64,000 nt of DNA from a virus (lineage: Duplodnaviria > Caudoviricetes), in IMG/VR virus record IMGVR_UViG_3300029305_003710, positions 20,153 through 84,152 of that record. One strand, written 5' to 3'. Positions within the stretch are counted from its first letter, which is position 1. Each line of letters begins with the position of its first letter. The notes below the pieces were generated by a model, which saw nothing but the letters and a program-made list of their open reading frames with translations, ran no database searches and was not told the origin of the DNA. Made by a program: the position numbers and the translations under genes. Positions 3,039-59,530 of the stretch are shown in pieces.

Positions 3039-4762
3039 AAGCAATAGTTAGTTTAAGTGGCGGTAGAGACTCGGGTACTTTACTGGCTAAGGTAGTTAAA
3101 GAGTTAGGAGCGGAAAATGTTTACGCTATTTCTTTTGAATACGGGAGTAAGCATCCTGCCGAACTTGAGTGTGCTAAAAGGTTAGCCAAGTATTATGGAA
3201 TTAAAGAGCATAAGATTATCACTATCGACCCAAGTATTTTTCAAGGTTCAACCTGTACTCTATTAAAAGGCGGAAACGAAGTCCAGAAGGATATGACTTA
3301 CGATGAGATTATTGAAAGAGACGGAGAAGGACAAGTGGATACTTATGTTCCAGCCAGAAACTTTCTTTTCTCGGCATATACTTGTGCTTATGCGGAATCT
3401 AAGGCTCAGGAAACTGGAGATGAAGTAACTTATTATTTAGGGCAACACGCCGATGACGCTGCGGGTGCAGCATATTCCGACGCAGTAGCGAAAGGGTCGA
3501 TGATTTTGATGGCGGATGGAACGGAAAAGAAAATTGAAGATGTTGAAGTTGGGGATTTGATTTGGGCTTTTAATACTAAAACAAGAAAGCTGGAAAAGAG
3601 CCAAGTCTTTGATAAAATCTTTCAAGGGGTTCGTCCTGTTTACGCTACGGGTGGAGCGAAGGTATCGGCGAATCATATTATGTGGCGAGCGGGAACTCCT
3701 AATAAAAAGTTTTGTCCATTCAGCGATATGAAACGCAAAGATGCTACTTATAAAGCCTTCCGTTTCGACTTCGCTCCGCAAAAAATTGAAGATGAAAATA
3801 ATTTTATTAAAGGATATTTGTGGGGATTGATAGAAGGGGATGGGTGGCAAGGCAAGAGCCATAAAGGGAGTCGTATCGAATTAAATGTCTGTCAGAAGGA
3901 CGAGAGTGTTCTGAAAGAGGCATCTAGTTTGTTCGAAAAAGTTTATCGTTTGAAGCGGGAGATTCGAACTAGACAACGTAAAGATAATGATATGTATGTT
4001 TTATCTTTTGGCGTAGATAATAGTGAATTGTTATTGGCGGATATTGATGAGTTGCTTGATAATAGAGATTTTAGATTAGGATATCTCAACGGGATGATTA
4101 TCGCAGAGGGGTGCTATAATGGGTCTTATTGTGGTCGAGCTATTGAGTTTTGCCAGTCTGAAAAAGCGAACCCTGAAAAGGTAAAGTATATTGATGAGTG
4201 TATGAAGGTGGCTGGTTATTATCATCATCGTTATGTTGGGAAAAAAGATTTTTGTGTAAATTGGAAAATTCCTCGCGCGTTTTGTGTATGTCTTAAATAT
4301 GGGGCGGGTAAATTGGATTCTTTACATAAGAAAATGTGCAAACAAGTAAAGGTGGAGTCGTTAGCCCCCGCTATAAAGATTGATGGTATTGTAAGTGCAG
4401 AATACTTAGGAGAGCAAGAGTGTTATGATTTGACTACCTCGGCGGGCTCGTATTTTGCGGATGGTTTATTGGTTCATAACTGTAGCCCAGCCTTCACGGA
4501 AACAATGGCAAAAGCCACGGAAATTAGTTCGGAAGGACGAGTGCATACGGTTAGCCCGTTTATTAACCTGCATAAGTCAGATATTATTGAGCTAGCGATT
4601 AAACTCGGTTTGCCTCTGGGATATACTTTAAGTTGCTATGACCCGATTGAAAAAGACGGTTATATAGAAGAGTGCGGGAGGTGCGCTACCTGCCTAGATG
4701 TTAAAAAGGCAATGGAAAAGAATGGTCTGGAATATAAGCCCACTCGCGTAAAAATCGCATAA
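3035..4762 (+). CDS. queC: 7-cyano-7-deazaguanine synthase QueC, intein-containing
   Basis: SLSGGRDS PP-loop, YG.KH..E, TYVPARN, YSD|C, P.I.L.K.DI, T.SCY, CG.C.TC zinc site. Confidence 0.92.
   Translation: MKAIVSLSGGRDSGTLLAKVVKELGAENVYAISFEYGSKHPAELECAKRLAKYYGIKEHKIITIDPSIFQGSTCTLLKGGNEVQKDMTYDEIIERDGEGQVDTYVPARNFLFSAYTCAYAESKAQETGDEVTYYLGQHADDAAGAAYSDAVAKGSMILMADGTEKKIEDVEVGDLIWAFNTKTRKLEKSQVFDKIFQGVRPVYATGGAKVSANHIMWRAGTPNKKFCPFSDMKRKDATYKAFRFDFAPQKIEDENNFIKGYLWGLIEGDGWQGKSHKGSRIELNVCQKDESVLKEASSLFEKVYRLKREIRTRQRKDNDMYVLSFGVDNSELLLADIDELLDNRDFRLGYLNGMIIAEGCYNGSYCGRAIEFCQSEKANPEKVKYIDECMKVAGYYHHRYVGKKDFCVNWKIPRAFCVCLKYGAGKLDSLHKKMCKQVKVESLAPAIKIDGIVSAEYLGEQECYDLTTSAGSYFADGLLVHNCSPAFTETMAKATEISSEGRVHTVSPFINLHKSDIIELAIKLGLPLGYTLSCYDPIEKDGYIEECGRCATCLDVKKAMEKNGLEYKPTRVKIA
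3482..4480 (+). mobile_element. 333-aa intein with LAGLIDADG endonuclease in QueC; Ala at position 1
   Basis: N-term AVAKGSMILMADG, block B SANH, LAGLIDADG motifs YLWGLIEGDG and YLNGMIIAEG, C-term CYDLTT...LLVHN|C; removal restores YSDC. Confidence 0.9.
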
Positions 4763-4879: not shown

Positions 4880-5179
4880 ATGGGGTTGAGATATAACCTC
4901 GATAAAAGAAAGGAATCTATGAGACTTGCTTCATTATATATCGACACCGACGGCAATATAAATGCTCATATCGTTGTCGATAACTACAAAATGATAAAAG
5001 CCCGCTATCATAAGGTCAATCCGCACCGCCCTACGTATCCGAATGTAACTTTTAAAGGAGAGGATTATGCAAGCGATTCTATGACCTTCTACGGTTACAG
5101 GAAGCGTCCTCGCTATCAAAGTTGGCAAAAAATACATACTTTGGTGCAAGAAGCCCTTAACGAAATGGAGGAGGAGTAA
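4880..5179 (+). CDS. Hypothetical protein
   Basis: 99-aa ORF directly after a consensus promoter. Confidence 0.6.
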   Translation: MGLRYNLDKRKESMRLASLYIDTDGNINAHIVVDNYKMIKARYHKVNPHRPTYPNVTFKGEDYASDSMTFYGYRKRPRYQSWQKIHTLVQEALNEMEEE

Positions 5180-5180
5180 T

Positions 5181-5537
5181 ATGCAGTATTATGCAGAAAT
5201 CCCTCCTGTTGCCACTATGACTGGTCGCAAAATGGAAAGTACTTGGTGGGGCGACTTCAGGGTGGCGGCTGAGCTTGGTGGATTAAAAGGTATCAAAGAT
5301 ACTTATAAACGGGGTTTAGCTCTTGCCAAGAGTGATAAAGTTTACGGAACCGAGTTTAGCCTAGTGCTGAACTGGTTGTGCTGGTTTTACGCTGGAGATA
5401 AAGTAGTTTTAGACGACAACTCGCCAGATACCCAAAAGGCTAAATTGTTTAAAGAGCTTTGGGAAGAGTTTGATAATTGGGTGATGGAGAACTGGAAGGG
5501 CGAAGACTTATCCTATTACATTTCGGAGACTGACTAA
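5181..5537 (+). CDS. Hypothetical phage protein
   Basis: Strong SD GGAGGAGG; tightly coupled ORF. Confidence 0.7.
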   Translation: MQYYAEIPPVATMTGRKMESTWWGDFRVAAELGGLKGIKDTYKRGLALAKSDKVYGTEFSLVLNWLCWFYAGDKVVLDDNSPDTQKAKLFKELWEEFDNWVMENWKGEDLSYYISETD

Positions 5538-19909: not shown

Positions 19910-20670
19910 TAAGTTTTTTCTTTAGGGACAGATTTGGTCTGAAGGCATAATATAAGGATGGAGGTAAAAGGGGTATATTGTCTTCGGATAGGCTTCGCCT
20001 TATCCGTGGTCGTTGGCACGACCAAATTAGTTTGTAGTTTAGAAGGTGAATTGTTTAGGAAGATGTTTTCGATTGGTCGCAAGATGGAGTGGACAAGCTG
20101 GTTGAAGAAATAGACCCCCTTACCCCCATAAGCATAAGGCAAATAAAACAACTTAAACTTGTGGAGATAAAGGAGGTCTAATGGCAATCTGGAGAGTTGT
20201 CTCGGCAGTGTCATAGTGGGTTCTATCCCTTCGGCTCGATGTATCTCAATCGCCAGCCTCATTTTAATTAGAGTCAAATGTTTCGTTGAACTCTTGAACC
20301 CAAACAAAACCGCTCGCCCAAACATTCCCTCGTATATATAGCCATAATGGTCTTCCCATTATGCGAAAGAACCTTCGCTTGGTTAGGCTACTTGTCTAAA
20401 CTCTTGTTCCCATCTATAAATAGAAGTTTCTGTCTAGCTTTTGCCATTCGAGCATTCCAGACTTACACTGGTCTCGGTAGATTCCGTGTCTTGTCACCCA
20501 AGAGCAAAAACGATTTTATCCTTGGGAGAATAATTACGTTTATGTTCGACTACTCCCTGCACACTTTACAAGAATTAGCTCTTTGTGATATACTAGTTCT
20601 TGTAGTGTGTTTTTGTAGTTAGCTCTATTATAACACATTTGTGTTGTAAGGCTGTGGTACACTATGTTCT

Positions 20671-53388: not shown

Positions 53389-54078
53389 ATGACGATGCGC
53401 AAAAAATACCCTCACGAATATCATGCTTGGGTGGGGATGCGGAATAGGTGCAAGAACTCAAAAAAGATTAAGGATGAAGGGATTGTTTGTTGCGACAGGT
53501 GGGCAACATTCAAAAACTTTTTGGAAGACATGGGGCCCCGTCCTGAGGGGACATATCTCACAAGGCACAATTTAGATGGGAATTTTAACAAAGAGAATTG
53601 CTATTGGGGGCACCCCAAAGGTATTTACGTCGATAAAAAGCTAAGAGAAGAAAATTGGATAGAGTTTTCGGCATGGGCAGATACGAGACGACGATGCTAC
53701 AACCCAAATTATAGATATTTTTGGCGGTATGGAGGACGAGGTATTAAGGTTTGTGACAGATGGTTGGGAACAAATGGATTCAAACACTTCTTAGACGACA
53801 TGGGGAAGCGTCCGCCAGACAAGACTTCGCTCGACCGTATTGACGTGGACGGAGATTATTGCCCAGAAAATTGCCGATGGGCAAATTGGCATGAGCAGGC
53901 CAGAAACAAGGGCAACAATCGTAAGGTAATCGGAGTGTCTCCATGCCGCGCAAAAGGGACTTGGCAAGCAGATTTAGTCGTAAAAGGATGTCGTGTCCTG
54001 CACCATGAGTTTCAGGACTATAAGAATGCAGTTGTATCGCGGCGATTAGCTGCTAAATTATACGGTTTAGAGTTCTAA
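53389..54078 (+). CDS. HNH endonuclease with duplicated domain and AP2-like C-terminus
   Basis: Two W..MR.RC...CDRW..F..FL.DMG.RP units; second has SLDRIDVDGDYCPENCRW; GVS....TWQA; leaderless promoter TTGCTA-17-TATAAT. Confidence 0.8.
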   Translation: MTMRKKYPHEYHAWVGMRNRCKNSKKIKDEGIVCCDRWATFKNFLEDMGPRPEGTYLTRHNLDGNFNKENCYWGHPKGIYVDKKLREENWIEFSAWADTRRRCYNPNYRYFWRYGGRGIKVCDRWLGTNGFKHFLDDMGKRPPDKTSLDRIDVDGDYCPENCRWANWHEQARNKGNNRKVIGVSPCRAKGTWQADLVVKGCRVLHHEFQDYKNAVVSRRLAAKLYGLEF

Positions 54079-54612
54079 CTCTACTGGTGAGAAATTTGTT
54101 ACCTCGACGCAGAGATTGACATACGAACTTGGGTGGAGAAGAGAATCTCCCGCCAGCTGAGGGTCATTCGAGCGGTGCCGGTGTCCATGCAGGTTTATCG
54201 CTTTATGCCCATACATACCTTCCAATGCTTGTATAGTGGTGTAGGGGACAGGGATGTGAGTAATGATATAAGTTAATCTACCTGGCATGGTGGGGGAAGG
54301 GAGAACCAGCATTCTGTGGATTTCCTCAAAGCCAGCGTCGTGATACCAGTGGTCGCTTTGGTTGTCATGATTCCCCTTAATAAGAAGTTTATGCCCATTC
54401 AAGGATTTTAGGAGTTGTTGAGATTCCGAGGCTTTGCCTAGGAAACAGTCCCCTAAGTTATAAACCGTGTCTTCTGGTTTGACGAGTTCGTTCCAGTTTT
54501 TGATAATAGTTTGGTTCATCTCCTCGACTGACGAGAAGTGTTCTCTGCCCTCGAATTTAAGAGAAGCCTGATGGTTTATGTGAAGGTCTGACACGAAGTA
54601 AATTTTGCTCAT
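54067..54612 (-). CDS. Calcineurin-like metallophosphoesterase
   Basis: SDLH, LGD, GNHD, TH.P and HGH.H motifs. Confidence 0.88.
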   Translation of the reverse strand: MSKIYFVSDLHINHQASLKFEGREHFSSVEEMNQTIIKNWNELVKPEDTVYNLGDCFLGKASESQQLLKSLNGHKLLIKGNHDNQSDHWYHDAGFEEIHRMLVLPSPTMPGRLTYIITHIPVPYTTIQALEGMYGHKAINLHGHRHRSNDPQLAGDSLLHPSSYVNLCVEVTNFSPVELEL

Positions 54613-55133
54613 AAATCCGTCCGAAGATTTAGTTCTTCTAACATATCTGTTCGTAGATTATGAAAGTCCTCCTCTGTAAATTGCGTTAAAGGCCTCTCAG
54701 AGGCTCTAGAAGGGGTTTTTCGGTTCGAGACGGTAACAACTTCATCTTCGACATCAGAAGCCCCTTGTAGGCGATTTTGGAGCGTCTGAGGACATATATT
54801 TTCGTGGGCTTCTAGTAGCTCAATCGCGCAAGCGTATCCTAGTGCCATGTAAGCTGACATATCTTGGAATTTTTCGTCCAACAATTCCTGCGTGGGGTAA
54901 ATACCTTTGTCGATATTTTCAGCGATGTCCTCTAGGGACTCCCAGTGTTTCGAGGCGTAATAAAGACAAATCATTAAAGGATTGGTCTTAAAGGTAGAGC
55001 AAGCCTTCTTAAAGTTGCTCAACCTGTCTCCGTCGTCATCTGTGTCAGCGTACTCGGCTCGCTTTTTAATCAAGATGTTGTCGACCAAGGTGCGTAGATG
55101 TTGATAATGTTGTTCGAATTCTTGTAATTTCAT
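54609..55133 (-). CDS. Nucleotide-modification-associated/MazG-like helical protein
   Basis: KRAEYA...D.LSNF, KH..S, EK..D...Y pattern; probable start MKLQEF at 55133. Confidence 0.5.
   Translation of the reverse strand: MKLQEFEQHYQHLRTLVDNILIKKRAEYADTDDDGDRLSNFKKACSTFKTNPLMICLYYASKHWESLEDIAENIDKGIYPTQELLDEKFQDMSAYMALGYACAIELLEAHENICPQTLQNRLQGASDVEDEVVTVSNRKTPSRASERPLTQFTEEDFHNLRTDMLEELNLRTDL
54670..54791. repeat. Dispersed DNA motif, copy C (inside a CDS)
   Basis: Contains CCTCTGTAAATTGCGTT and GAGACGGTAAC (like copy A) and the 28-mer inverted relative to 22076-22103. Confidence 0.6.
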
Positions 55134-55140
55134 ATTCTTC

Positions 55141-56556
55141 CTATGCCACGATTTGGCGATAACGTTCGCTATTAACGACCTCATTCATCAAGTCTTCAGG
55201 GGTTTTGCCTTCCATAGCAAACCTAAAAGCATTCTGGTTTGAACCACTGATAAGCGTCACATTGCGGTCAAATTTAGTCGCAGGGACATTATCGGAACGA
55301 GCGTCCACGTTCCAGAACACCACTGTTGGCAATTTAAGTCCAGCTTCATTCCATTTGCGACGAGCATTTTCAAAAGCAGTTTCGTCTGCTCCAGTTATAC
55401 AGTAATCAAACTCCATATCGGAAATGATGTAAATCACTTTCGGCATATTTTCAAAGTCGTTAGAAGCCTTGGCCGCAGTAAGAAGAGCATCAAAAGCAGC
55501 TTCGATATTAGTATTCGCACCCCAATCGGCAGTTTCAATGTTATGGAGCTTTTGCGTGAGGGTATCCCCTGCTATTTCAACGAGCCGTGGTTGTTCGGAA
55601 AATGTCATAAACTTATTAGCGAACACCCCCTTGTTCCTCTCGGCGAAGTAAAGTGCAAGAGACGTGGAGATGTCCATTGGGCGTCCATACATTGAACCAG
55701 AGACATCTGCTATAACGATAGCGTTTAAGTCTTCTGGGACAAAATTATCAAGCGATTTCCAAATCGCATTAGAAGTATCGTTGTCGCCTTTGCGAACATT
55801 TTGCAGAACCTCCGCAGTAGTCACAGTTGAGGTGTTAATTTTGGCTTTGCCCTCGTTTACTTTAGTAACAAAAGCAGAGAAACGTTCCTCGTCATGTTTT
55901 TTGAAAGCAGTTGTGTGTTTACGGAAGGCTTGGGAAGGAAGCTTATCGTATTGGATTTCTCCCCATCTATTCGCTGACATATCCTGTTCGAGCAGTCGGA
56001 TTTTCTTTCTGAGTTTAGATAGCAGTTTACGATATTCACTCGCTTTGAGTCCTAAAGCTTTAGCCCAGTTCCTCGCTGCCTTACGGGTGCTTATAGAAGA
56101 AGTATTTTCTGAATCCATCCACTTTGCAAGGAGCGAAGGTTGCTCGGATTTCTCGTCCTCGGCGAGTTGTTTTTTAACAATCTCGACCGCCACAGGGTTG
56201 CTTGCTCGGTTATAGAGAAGGTCGTCCCACCGTCCGTATTCGGGAATAAATTTGAGCATTTTATTGGCAGTATCAAAATCAAGGGCAGCAAGTTCTTCCA
56301 TACACTTCCGGAAAATATCTCTCTCGCCCTGCCCCCCTCGAATATCTCGAATATAAAACAGAGTTCGTAGAGCTGTGGTCTTGTTTTTCGCATAAGCCTT
56401 TCTAAACAGGCCAACTGCTTCTTCGGGTCTAGCACGCTTGCTTGCTCCAAGAGCAAAAAAATCAAGGCATGGATTGAGGCTACTTGCGTTAGTTACACCA
56501 CCGTTTTCGGTGGTAGCCTTATTCGTTGCCTTTTGTAGTTCTTCTAAGTACCCCAT
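55141..56556 (-). CDS. DUF2828 family TROVE/Ro60-like protein with C-terminal vWA domain
   Basis: TENG, LDFF, RDIRGG.GER, YGRWDDL, LLAKW, DVSGSM (MIDAS), TFS, T.....FD.LL, ISDMEFD, VVFWNV. Confidence 0.88.
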   Translation of the reverse strand: MGYLEELQKATNKATTENGGVTNASSLNPCLDFFALGASKRARPEEAVGLFRKAYAKNKTTALRTLFYIRDIRGGQGERDIFRKCMEELAALDFDTANKMLKFIPEYGRWDDLLYNRASNPVAVEIVKKQLAEDEKSEQPSLLAKWMDSENTSSISTRKAARNWAKALGLKASEYRKLLSKLRKKIRLLEQDMSANRWGEIQYDKLPSQAFRKHTTAFKKHDEERFSAFVTKVNEGKAKINTSTVTTAEVLQNVRKGDNDTSNAIWKSLDNFVPEDLNAIVIADVSGSMYGRPMDISTSLALYFAERNKGVFANKFMTFSEQPRLVEIAGDTLTQKLHNIETADWGANTNIEAAFDALLTAAKASNDFENMPKVIYIISDMEFDYCITGADETAFENARRKWNEAGLKLPTVVFWNVDARSDNVPATKFDRNVTLISGSNQNAFRFAMEGKTPEDLMNEVVNSERYRQIVA

Positions 56557-56590
56557 GTTTCCTCCTTATATTAGTGAGGCGAACTCGTAC

Positions 56591-56686
56591 CAAGACACAA
56601 ATTTTGTACTGGAATTGAACCAGCGAAAGTTTCTGTTAAGGAAACGTTCCAACCATTGGGCTAAGGTGAGTTGCTGTATGTGTCTT
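56591..56686 (-). ncRNA. Stem-ACAGCAA scaffold RNA 2 with tRNA-like D, anticodon and T arms but no acceptor stem
   Basis: AAGACACA-t-ACAGCAA...TGTGTCTTG; TAGCCCAATGG (D-like), GTTTC-cttaaca-GAAAC, GCTGG-ttcaatt-CCAGT. Confidence 0.65.
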
Positions 56687-56696
56687 TAATGTTCGC

Positions 56697-56810
56697 TAGA
56701 CATTATATTAAGTGCTCTACCATTGAGCTATATGAGCCATGCTCATAATCGGATTCGAACCGACAACATCTCCATTATCAGTGGAATATGTTATTTGCTG
56801 TTAATGTCTA
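56697..56810 (-). ncRNA. Stem-ACAGCAA scaffold RNA 1 carrying a circularly permuted tRNA-Ile(GAU)
   Basis: TAGACATTA-ACAGCAA...TAATGTCTA encloses, in order, anticodon arm (loop CTGATAA), T arm (TTCGAAT), acceptor 3' strand TATGAGC-A, TG linker, acceptor 5' strand GCTCATA and D arm (GCTC-AATGGTA-GAGC). Confidence 0.8.
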
Positions 56811-56858
56811 CAATTCAAGTATATAGCATGAGGCTGATTTTTACAAGTATGATATCCA

Positions 56859-57060: not shown

Positions 57061-58614
57061 TTATACCACACCATACTTAGGTTTGATTGCTTCCCAAATC
57101 TTCGAGATGCACTCTTGCTCCTTGTCTTTGCGGAGCATGAACAGATAGGGTTTCAAGTTTTGATAATTATCGAGAAGCCCAAGTTCCTTGTCTGTCAGGT
57201 GAGAAGTTTCGCTATCGGCGTCTTGGACGGCTCGCCAAATCTCGTTAAACTCCTTCGTGAATTCTCGTTGCCAAGTAATCGCTTGGGGCAGAAGTTCGTC
57301 AACCTCTACTTCTTCGGCGACTAGCTTGCCGTCTCGCATAATTTCCCAGATTCTTCGCTTATTAAAGCCCGAGATTAAGCGGTGTCGTTCAAGCCACCAG
57401 GAGCCTTTTATCTTGACACGCTCGCCAGTCTGGGGGTTCAGTGCAACTACGCCTTCTACCTCACCCTTGATATATTTTTTGTAGTCAGTAATCTGCTCTG
57501 CATAAGGAAAGGGTGATAGTTCTTGAGGGTTTAGTTCTTCCCCCTCGAGGGTTCTAATGCCCCAGCAAATTAGCATTGGCTCGTAATGTTTCGTGACGAT
57601 AATGGCTTCGTCGCCTTCAAAGTTTTGGCAAAGTTCGCAAAAGTAAGATAACCCCTCGATAAGGTTTTCTTGTATCGCCGGGGTGATGAACTTCTTGGCA
57701 GCGTCCACATACTTATTATCAAAACTCCCTCGTGAAGCGACGATAAGCCCGAAAATGGGGTCTTTTTTCACGATAATCATATAGCCGTCGCTTTTGGAGG
57801 TGATGACGGATTTGTTGAGATTAACCTTTGCAGCAAACGGCTCGCCAAGATTGAAAAACTTTTCTGGCGGGTTGACGACAATGTTTCTACCATTGAGGAT
57901 TAGCCCTCGGCATTTCCGCGTGACATCAGTCCAATAACCTTCGTAGTCGCACTGTTTTGTATAGTTATAGATTTTCAAGGGCAAAGTGGGGTGTGTTGCG
58001 ACGCGGATGTTCCCTGCCTCGACTTCTTTTTGCAGTCGCTCGAACCAACTCTCACTTACACAAGTATAAGTTCTCTTGAAATGAAAGCCCTTACACTTCC
58101 ACCCGTATTCGAGGGAAGCCCATATCCTGTTGGGTTTTGCCCCTACATCTCGAGCGGCTTCTGAAATACTCCGATAGCGTTTAAGGGTTTCGACACAATA
58201 GACGGGGACGAGTTCCATCTTATTGCTAGTGCTTTGGTTAAGAGTATAGATTCTATGCTTCATATTTTCCGACGAAGATACCCACTCAAGATTTTCAACT
58301 CGATTGTCTCGACGGTCGCCGTTTTTGTGGTTGACTTCTTTTCCCCCGTCTGGGTTAGGGATAAATACTTCTGCCACAAGGCGATGGACATATTTTCCTT
58401 GCCAGCCCGCAGTGTTATAAAGCCTAGCCTTAATATAGGCAGTTTTATCTTTTTTCGTCGGCTGGGGGTTGAGCACTTTCCCCTTATATCGCCATTCTCC
58501 AAGTTTGTGTTGGACAACACGAGGCACACTCCTTACTCTGCCGAGTGAACTTACCTCATATAACCCTTCATACCCCTTAACGGGCAACCATTTTTCTTGT
58601 AGTATTTCCTCCAT
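57061..58614 (-). CDS. NUMOD4-HNH endonuclease fused in frame to a T4 Rnl1-like RNA ligase
   Basis: N-term W.PV.GYEG.YEVS..GRVRS, VHRLVA, VNHKNG...DNR..NLEW; C-term IYNY, CRGLI, KFFN.GE, KSDG (motif I), ASRGSF, EGVV, RVKIK. Confidence 0.85.
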   Translation of the reverse strand: MEEILQEKWLPVKGYEGLYEVSSLGRVRSVPRVVQHKLGEWRYKGKVLNPQPTKKDKTAYIKARLYNTAGWQGKYVHRLVAEVFIPNPDGGKEVNHKNGDRRDNRVENLEWVSSSENMKHRIYTLNQSTSNKMELVPVYCVETLKRYRSISEAARDVGAKPNRIWASLEYGWKCKGFHFKRTYTCVSESWFERLQKEVEAGNIRVATHPTLPLKIYNYTKQCDYEGYWTDVTRKCRGLILNGRNIVVNPPEKFFNLGEPFAAKVNLNKSVITSKSDGYMIIVKKDPIFGLIVASRGSFDNKYVDAAKKFITPAIQENLIEGLSYFCELCQNFEGDEAIIVTKHYEPMLICWGIRTLEGEELNPQELSPFPYAEQITDYKKYIKGEVEGVVALNPQTGERVKIKGSWWLERHRLISGFNKRRIWEIMRDGKLVAEEVEVDELLPQAITWQREFTKEFNEIWRAVQDADSETSHLTDKELGLLDNYQNLKPYLFMLRKDKEQECISKIWEAIKPKYGVV

Positions 58615-58642: not shown

Positions 58643-59530
58643 TTACCGCAAATCTAGTCTGGCGGCGTCGAAGGTTGCATTTCCCTTTTTATCAAAAGTA
58701 ACTTCGAGAAAACTATTGTCGCCGATTGGCACAGAAAACCCTGCATACCAAACCCACGCTTCGGAGTGGGTGTCGCAGAACACTAATTGTTTAGAGCCTT
58801 TGTCTGCATCAGAAATCTGGTAGGTCTCGATAGTCTTCACGGGCGTATGCCCAACAATCTGATTGAGTCCCCACGGAGCGTGTCCTTCGTTGTTTTCATC
58901 GCCTAAGAGGTCAGACTTATCTGCCCAAAGCGGTGAGGGATTGCCTAGCCCGCCACGGCTCGACCCTGCTTGCCCAAAAGCCCTAAAGAGTTTGTCGTCG
59001 GGGTTTGATAATCCTTCTAAAAAACCATAGCCTAAAATGTTCGCAACCTTACAGGCTAAAGTCCCCTCTTTCCCGTTTAGGAGTTCAAGCAAGCTCGGAT
59101 AGTGGTTTTTAAGGAGAAGTTTGAGGTCTTCAAACCACCTTTCATCTAGCCCACCGTGAGTAAATAAATAATTTCCTTTGGAGTAAGCCATATCAAAGAC
59201 AGGCACATTTCCGTCAAGCCTTGTCTTGTAGAGGTCTTTGACAAGCGAGTGCGTTTCTTCCTTATAGCCTGAACAAGCAAAATCTCCTCCCCAACCTTCT
59301 GATAAATCGTGATTGCCGAGTAAAAGAGTAATCTTTTGAGGATTATCAAGTTTCAAATCAACTAGTTCTTTTAAGGTGTTGTAGGATTGTTCTGGAGTAG
59401 CCAGCCAATCATCAACATAGTCCCCCAAAAAGATTATTCGGTCGTATTTAGGCAAAAGCTCTTTAGCTTTTTTGATAATCCTAGGCTTACAATGTATGTC
59501 ACCAAAAACAGCCACCTTCAGTATCTTCAT
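58643..59530 (-). CDS. Calcineurin-like metallophosphoesterase
   Basis: GDIH, LGDYVD, GNHD, THGG and VGHT motifs. Confidence 0.88.
   Translation of the reverse strand: MKILKVAVFGDIHCKPRIIKKAKELLPKYDRIIFLGDYVDDWLATPEQSYNTLKELVDLKLDNPQKITLLLGNHDLSEGWGGDFACSGYKEETHSLVKDLYKTRLDGNVPVFDMAYSKGNYLFTHGGLDERWFEDLKLLLKNHYPSLLELLNGKEGTLACKVANILGYGFLEGLSNPDDKLFRAFGQAGSSRGGLGNPSPLWADKSDLLGDENNEGHAPWGLNQIVGHTPVKTIETYQISDADKGSKQLVFCDTHSEAWVWYAGFSVPIGDNSFLEVTFDKKGNATFDAARLDLR

Follow-up and report, generated by a model that had tools for sequence, protein, structure and literature searches.

Tandem tRNA-like RNAs sharing an ACAGCAA handle, candidate Y-RNA-like partners of a Ro60-like DUF2828 protein in a tailed phage

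Introduction

Ro60/Y-RNA particles, with the tRNA-like modules of their RNAs, are conserved from bacteria to humans. Here we consider two adjacent small RNA units, above all the second of them (unit 2), in a 64,000-nucleotide stretch of DNA (hereafter the window) from a tailed phage with long structural genes, positions 20,153 to 84,152 of the IMG/VR record IMGVR_UViG_3300029305_003710. The units lie directly upstream of a DUF2828 gene and have a common terminal module, the handle, composed of a short stem, the single-stranded motif ACAGCAA and a trailing G. An earlier note, made from the sequence, had regarded the stem and ACAGCAA as a constant protein-binding module loaded with interchangeable tRNA-mimic inserts, analogous to Y RNAs but with a distinct consensus.

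Y RNAs encoded upstream of Rsr are cut from one precursor and mimic tRNA (PMC4201824). Chen et al. 2014 drew Deinococcus Yrn1 with the T and D arms opposite to those of YrlA and with an anticodon-like arm between them (PMC4201824). The Ro60 of Thermus phage phiLo binds two upstream Y-like RNAs, Yrl1 and Yrl2, in vitro (PMC12135203; PDB 9KOP, 9L5Y), and a 2024 preprint describes Bas63 gp130 as a Ro60-like protein countering the Ppl defence and notes that "tRNAs" near it might be Y RNAs (10.1101/2024.10.10.617714). Class I RNAs are eukaryotic and were reported to be unique to Dictyostelia, their known binder being the RNA recognition motif protein Rnp1A (PMC7919456). The tRNA mimics treated in a 2026 preprint belong to other families.

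Against this background, unit 2 is likely to be the second of two tandem Y-RNA-like RNAs partnering a Ro60-like DUF2828 protein in a phage RNA-repair cassette.

Results

Structure of unit 2 and its sister unit

Unit 2 is 96 nucleotides (nt) long and has the frame AAGACACA-U-ACAGCAA...UGUGUCUU-G. All its elements named in the earlier note are present base for base on the minus strand:

56591-56686, minus strand: unit 2, a handle with trailing G that encloses an acceptor-less tRNA mimic in normal order (covariance models R1 and R2, described below)
56679-56686, minus strand: 5' strand AAGACACA of the terminal stem of unit 2 (8 base pairs, bp; the stem covaries in relatives)
56678, minus strand: unpaired U between the 5' stem strand and ACAGCAA
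56671-56677, minus strand: ACAGCAA, the single-stranded handle motif, invariant in alignments A4 and A6
56649-56663, minus strand: D-loop-like stretch UAGCCCAAUGGUUGG, its GG conserved in the class
56629-56645, minus strand: anticodon-like arm GUUUC-CUUAACA-GAAAC, a 5-bp stem with a 7-nt loop; the helix covaries in the class
56608-56624, minus strand: T arm GCUGG-UUCAAUU-CCAGU (region of the Rfam tRNA match, RNAfold, R2)
56592-56599, minus strand: 3' strand UGUGUCUU of the terminal stem (sequence, closed unit)
56591, minus strand: trailing G (sequence)
56579-56696, minus strand: outer 6-bp helix GCGAAC (56696-56691) / GUUCGC (56584-56579), from the RNAfold minimum-energy structure of the single sequence
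56697-56810, minus strand: unit 1, a handle with a circularly permuted, YrlA-like tRNA mimic (sub-threshold Rfam YrlA match, closed unit)

The loop CUUAACA carries C32, U33, the "anticodon" UAA and C37; 4 nt separate the anticodon-like arm from the T arm, and an 8-nt tail connects the T arm to the 3' stem strand. The would-be acceptor strands (CUCACCU/ACAAAAU) had been described as unpaired, and indeed form only two of seven pairs, at best three of seven in any register. The outer helix was likewise recovered, the coordinates given for it earlier (56581-56696) being 2 nt short; the span that it closes stops a few nt before the ribosome-binding site.

Unit 1 has the same handle (UAGACAUUA-ACAGCAA...UAAUGUCUA-G), as expected for a repeated scaffold. 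Its body comprises, in order, an anticodon-like arm CUGAUAA, a T arm, a closed acceptor hairpin and a D arm. It matches the Rfam YrlA model at 39.6 bits (E 3.6e-7; gathering score 69) with mismatched outer stems. Unit 2 does not match YrlA (RF02553) at E up to 10, and its score with the Rfam tRNA model RF00005 is 19 bits at a cut-off of 29. At gathering thresholds no Rfam match was obtained anywhere in the window, and ARAGORN called no tRNA genes in it. The folding of unit 2 as a single sequence is unremarkable (z = -1.39), hence the evidence for it is comparative, not thermodynamic.

Two other identities were considered and rejected for unit 2: a functional tRNA, as there is no acceptor stem, and an RNase III-type processing hairpin, as the helices are too short (6 + 8 bp).

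The handle is associated with DUF2828 genes

For the analysis of the handle, 160 loci encoding relatives of the DUF2828 protein were collected from contigs of metagenomes and viruses, and cultured phages were added. In 163 loci (903 kb) we observed 405 copies of ACAGCAA on the gene strand and 48 on the opposite strand, with about 55 per strand expected by chance. The asymmetry is stronger for closed units, that is, those with a complementary 8-mer within 175 nt: 321 on the gene strand vs. 11 on the opposite one. The motif is thus enriched next to DUF2828 genes, as the earlier note had predicted. The closed units at most 700 nt from the gene, either upstream or downstream, number 253. The units usually form arrays of 1-5 within the fetched flanks; in about half of the loci they are located directly upstream of the gene, and in the other half, downstream.

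An alignment of 63 short units yielded the consensus UAGAC-N-C-U-A-ACAGCAA...G-N-GUCUAG, with compensatory changes at six of the seven stem pairs and an invariant G two bases beyond the stem. The invariance of ACAGCAA is partly circular, since the units were picked via the exact core or via a pattern containing it, and the independent evidence is the strand bias given above. A covariance model built from these 63 units, all from other loci, with the window excluded (R1), was run on both strands of the whole window; it scored unit 2 at 29.2 bits (E 3e-4), with no other match worth mentioning. In 87 loci, 99 of 99 R1 matches are on the gene strand, among them matches in Mycobacterium phage Wilder, Bacillus phage Nate, Listeria phage A511 and Staphylococcus phage S-CoN_Ph7. 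In the loci of Escherichia coli phage bumzen, Campylobacter F361 and Vibrio D483, R1 found no unit at E up to 0.1; as bumzen holds variant units ending in GGUCUGG, the miss reflects a sensitivity limit, at least for this phage. These data show that the terminal stem, ACAGCAA and trailing G constitute a conserved, covarying, strand-specific handle travelling with DUF2828 genes, and the constant module claimed at the outset is borne out.

The same holds for the interchangeable inserts. Bodies found within the same handle include plain hairpins (median unit length 61 nt), permuted YrlA-like mimics (30-58 bits beside other DUF2828 genes, always under the Rfam cut-off), normal-order mimics with D, anticodon and T elements and with or without an acceptor stem, and full tRNAs. 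The latter lie inside complete handles with their acceptor stems intact in three loci: L154 (4904-5018; tRNA at 4929-5001, 73 bits), L087 (4066-4181; tRNA at 4091-4163, 67.5 bits) and L088 (5305-5422; tRNA at 5331-5403, 60.6 bits). No family of Rfam 15 matches the handle, and no description of it was found in the literature on DUF2828, YrlA and phage Y RNAs, the 22-phage list of Chen et al. 2014 being outside the scope of this search.

Several individual loci deserve mention. In Mycobacterium phage Wilder, an annotated "tRNA-Asn" (L001:4525-4595) overlaps a handle unit GGACUCCU-ACAGCAA... whose body is YrlA-like and permuted, and a short handle unit lies on either side of it (4460-4515 and 4655-4722); the annotated gene is probably a Y-like RNA, not a tRNA. 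A gene for a band-7-like membrane protein (L001:1119-2078) is situated about 1 kb upstream of the Ro-like gene of this phage. In Listeria phage A511, a ROOL RNA match (L003:1498-2049; 87.5 bits, gathering score 99.1) precedes gp57, the DUF2828 gene, by about 1 kb, with two handle units (2690-2750 and 2779-2840) between them. In the Felix O1-type Escherichia phage bumzen, four handle units (L165:1944-2720) with the variant 3' end, one of them with UCAGCAA and one a permuted tRNA mimic, sit downstream of the vWFA/DUF2828 gene, among annotated tRNA genes; most of this region is shared by about 250 related phage records.

Recurrent tRNA mimics without an acceptor stem

A search pattern consisting of the 5' half of the handle and a T loop 38-62 nt later, with the 3' strand left out, detected at least 117 loci in IMG/VR. 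The complementary 3' handle strand is present in 107 of 118 pattern matches. Deduplication left 55 normal-order units; in nearly all of these, a 5-bp/7-nt hairpin precedes the T arm by 2-7 nt, with a UGG motif upstream. An acceptor stem would not fit into about half of the 55, and 13 have six or seven of its seven pairs.

We aligned 32 normal-order units of other phages (MAFFT, window excluded). Three helices pair in 92.5% of the alignment cells, compared with 67% in shuffled alignments and 32-48% when the partners are slid, and the covariation score of 0.60 (vs. 0.14) was reached by none of 500 shuffles. The covariance model derived from this alignment (R2) matches unit 2 along its full length at 61.3 bits (E 3.3e-12) with zero non-canonical pairs. 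Within the 84-kb genome only units 1 and 2 match R2, the next best candidates being real tRNA genes at 17-19 bits. The anticodon-like loop, tabulated for 66 normal-order units, retains C32 (74%), U33 (80%), A37 (85%) and A38 (80%), while positions 34-36 vary.

The association with DUF2828 is also seen in this set, collected by the RNA pattern. DUF2828 genes inside the pattern-derived loci are on the strand of the RNA in 52 of 52 cases, and 41 of 49 further records without the gene in the fetched stretch encode DUF2828 elsewhere. Among records at least 90% complete the protein is encoded in 19 of 20, the inspected exception being an unclosed chance match; the background is 709 of 50,697 cultured-phage records.

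Unit 2 thus belongs to a recurrent subclass that keeps the tRNA elbow (D-loop GG and T arm) and an anticodon-like arm, without the acceptor stem. Judged by this comparative evidence, it is a real small RNA gene and not a one-off.

The DUF2828 protein is predicted to have a Ro60 fold

The AlphaFold (AF2) model of the adjoining protein has a predicted local distance difference test score of 89. The top Foldseek matches of the model are all Ro60 and extend over the whole length (E 3e-8, TM about 0.6). With VIA-align, the model superimposes on Xenopus Ro60 (1yvr) with Z 23.8 and a root-mean-square deviation of 3.6 A over 398 residues; the Z values are 15 for the Thermus phage Ro60, 12.6 for Deinococcus Rsr and about 11 for vWA-only structures. 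The DxSxS metal ion-dependent adhesion site, which in Ro60/TROVE proteins belongs to the vWA domain accompanying a HEAT-repeat ring, is invariant (D284, S286, S288). By sequence, no match was obtained in PDB. The DUF2828 protein is, according to its modelled structure, a distant, separately named Ro60-like family, which agrees with the Y RNA analogy drawn initially; mycobacteriophage annotations already name it "Ro-like RNA binding protein".

The nearest relatives of this protein share 70-93% identity with it. A single-protein scan of viral contigs found no relative. When longer homologues were sought, only two were obtained, both of them fused phage forms (P0121, P0122), one of 954 amino acids (aa) with PF13597, the other of 868 aa with recombinase domains PF07508 and PF00239; the recombinase domains suggest an inserted mobile element. 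The papers found on DUF2828 deal mostly with plants.

Locus and phage context

Units 1 and 2 occupy a non-coding gap of about 500 nt between an RNA ligase gene and the DUF2828 gene. The surrounding features are:

58643-59530, minus strand: metallophosphoesterase, a candidate RNA end-healing enzyme (Pfam)
57061-58614, minus strand: Rnl1-type RNA ligase with an N-terminal NUMOD4/HNH module (Pfam)
56818-56846, minus strand: sigma-70-like promoter TTGTAA-17-TATACT, a weak candidate from a consensus scan only (2 sites vs. 1.3 expected)
55141-56556, minus strand: DUF2828/DUF7788/vWA protein of 471 aa, the presumed protein partner (Pfam, AF2 model, Foldseek)
54609-55184, minus strand: open reading frame of 191 aa without a Pfam match, between the DUF2828 gene and the second metallophosphoesterase gene
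54067-54612, minus strand: second metallophosphoesterase (Pfam), downstream of the DUF2828 gene and the 191-aa open reading frame

The promoter-like site would place the transcription start at about the first base of unit 1. The distance from the end of unit 2 to the DUF2828 ATG is about 35 nt, with no terminator between. In the ligase gene, NUMOD4 and HNH homing-endonuclease domains are fused in frame to the Rnl1-like domain.

The source record (84,152 bp) has a CheckV completeness of 100%. At least half of its sampled words are present in four feces-metagenome runs, and contigs from four DNA runs are identical to the window, with no variants among them. A blastn comparison of the RNA region with cultured phages gave no match. 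Eight real tRNA genes (Trp, Tyr, Pro, Asn, Phe, Gln x2, Gly) form an array elsewhere in this phage, outside the window (G000:C1:11066-11789; L290:1090-1816), all of them without handles; the "anticodons" of unit 1 (GAU) and unit 2 (UAA) are found in none of the eight.

Discussion

Proposed function and points against it

The locus is best read as a probable RNA-repair cassette of an RNA ligase and two phosphoesterases, with a Ro60-like ring protein and two RNAs inside it, units 1 and 2 being probably co-transcribed with the downstream DUF2828 gene from one promoter. By analogy with the Y RNA stem and Ro60, the handle would be the putative binding site for the ring, as the co-occurrence of the two suggests, and the tRNA-like body may act as an effector module, either recruiting tRNA-recognising enzymes or standing in for tRNA before tRNA-cutting defences of the host. 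Without an acceptor stem unit 2 could not be charged and should escape RNase P and 3'-end processing; hence it would stay intact as a ribonucleoprotein.

A number of observations weigh against this interpretation. The D stem of unit 2 is weak, with 2 bp in the tRNA register, and RNAfold favours an alternative 5-bp hairpin; position 37 of its loop is C, not a purine. Some handles enclose full tRNAs, so that a role in tRNA biogenesis is conceivable, and in large phages the units may be surrounded by tRNA genes, with DUF2828 tens of kb away. The Ro60-site motif GNCGAA is present in the first 30 nt of only one of 392 units, a count that also upholds the claim of a consensus distinct from that of Y RNAs; the animal motif GGUCCGA is present there in none of the 392, and in unit 2 CGAA occurs only within the outer helix. 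The protein has no match to Pfam TROVE at E up to 0.01. Given the lack of both the Ro60-site motif and a TROVE match, the Ro60 analogy rests on fold and synteny. Finally, the stretch was found in no RNA run.

Alternative explanations

Unit 2 could mainly be a cis-acting 5' leader of the DUF2828 mRNA and not a free RNA, acting as an autoregulatory operator either through attachment of the protein to its own leader or through gating of the ribosome-binding site by the outer helix. Such a role would fit the short terminator-free spacer before the ATG, the 3' strand of the outer helix adjoining the Shine-Dalgarno sequence, and the loci, about half of all, with units directly upstream of the gene. 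However, units are downstream of the gene in the other half, large phages carry them kilobases off in tRNA arrays, and a leader-only role would explain neither the arrays of 2-5 units nor the conserved tRNA elbow and anticodon arm, which makes this explanation improbable. We assign a similarly low probability to the view that the handle marks pre-tRNAs and tRNA-like transcripts as clients to be processed, protected or controlled in their folding, unit 2 being a decayed tRNA with no effector role of its own. The high-scoring tRNAs enclosed by some handles (60.6-73 bits), the continuum from a full acceptor stem to none, and the mixing of units and tRNA genes in Felix O1-type and large phages would be natural under this model. 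At the same time, the eight real tRNA genes of the window phage are elsewhere and have no handles, and in about half of the 55 non-redundant normal-order units an acceptor stem would not fit. In the 32 aligned units, drawn largely from the acceptor-less set, covariation persists in the anticodon and T helices, an argument for selection and against decay, and loop positions 32, 33, 37 and 38 are kept.

If unit 2 resembled tRNA by chance, or were a pseudo-tRNA left over from a gene that died beside a repeat, one would expect what ARAGORN, the Rfam tRNA model (19 bits) and the single-sequence folding score gave: no tRNA call, a low match and an ordinary z. Contrary to this, R2, although blind to the window, recognised unit 2 with E 3e-12, nothing comparable except unit 1 is found in the 84-kb genome, and the linkage to DUF2828 is strong; we consider both chance and a relic very improbable.

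Returning to the interpretation of the units as Y-RNA-like partners of the DUF2828 protein, one may speculate further. The stem-ACAGCAA-G module might be a general tag of DUF2828-type rings from phages to amoebae, Class I RNAs being its eukaryotic form, and the acceptor-less units might present an exchangeable anticodon arm as decoys or sensors for tRNA-cutting defences, together with the ligase and the phosphoesterases. This extension we regard as rather unlikely.

The association, if it reflects binding, would provide a second, sequence-distinct Ro-like family with its own putative cognate RNA family with a sharply defined handle. The naturally swapped bodies would be a ready-made mutational series for studying handle binding and the purpose of the tRNA mimicry. 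Members of the handle family occur in phages that are amenable to experiment (Listeria A511, cluster E mycobacteriophages, Staphylococcus and Bacillus phages, Felix O1-type coliphages), and some handle RNAs are currently annotated as tRNAs.

Comparison with known systems

Unit 2 resembles tRNA in its T arm, D-loop GG, 5-bp/7-nt anticodon arm with U33, short variable region and order of the arms; it differs in the absence of the acceptor stem (2-3 of 7 pairs) and of the CCA end, and in having C at position 37.

The bacterial and phage Y RNAs (YrlA/YrlB, Yrn1) and the units described here are alike in several respects. Both are small RNAs encoded beside, and on the same strand as, the gene of a protein with a known or predicted Ro60 fold; their ends pair into a stem bearing a short conserved motif; there are at least two RNAs per locus, the Y RNAs being processed from one precursor upstream of the gene; and in at least one RNA, T and D features make up a tRNA-like module. 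The topology of unit 2 is that of Yrn1, while unit 1 has the YrlA-like permuted order. Since Yrn1 had been drawn with the same orientation (PMC4201824), the tRNA-mimic topology is less new than the earlier note implied; the anticodon-like loop is of 7 nt in unit 2 and 6 nt in Yrn1. The differences from Y RNAs are in the partner (DUF2828/DUF7788, not Pfam TROVE), in the handle (ACAGCAA after the 5' strand, not GNCGAA(N)G or GGUCCGA), and in the arrays of up to five units with freely exchanged bodies.

In phage phiLo, as in the window, a phage Ro60-fold protein is preceded directly by two Y-like RNAs. However, the phiLo RNAs were picked by CGAA in a bulge and were not described as tRNA mimics, and the protein was retrieved from UniProt as a Ro60 homolog. 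The Bas63 gp130 gene is upstream of tRNA genes, similarly to the DUF2828 gene of bumzen, a likeness of position.

The same handle architecture is seen in the dictyostelid Class I RNAs (PMC7919456), which have a covarying short end stem, CCUUACAGCAA directly after the 5' strand and a variable body; an example from the sequence files of that paper is GUUGAC-CUU-ACAGCAA...GUCAAC-UG. They start with G or AAG, have UG after the 3' strand and are 42-65 nt long; the short phage units are about 60 nt. When the sequences are compared by reading, unit 2 shares 7 of 11 bases with the 11-nt Class I motif CCUUACAGCAA, these being ACAGCAA in the same place. On the other hand, unit 2 is 96 nt long and lies behind a weak candidate for a sigma-70-like promoter, whereas Class I RNAs lack a tRNA-like body and are driven by a DUSE promoter. 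The outgroup search in the same paper gave a candidate of the same frame in Arabidopsis, GUUUUC-AUU-ACAGCAA...GAAAAC-UG, and another in Capsaspora, neither of them accepted by the authors as a Class I RNA. The Class I RNAs of Dictyostelium have long gone unexplained, and the shared handle gives a lead on them that can be tested.

Taken together, the comparisons suggest that the ACAGCAA-handle RNAs are part of a particle of the Ro60/Y-RNA type that differs in its protein family and its handle and has exchangeable bodies derived from tRNA.
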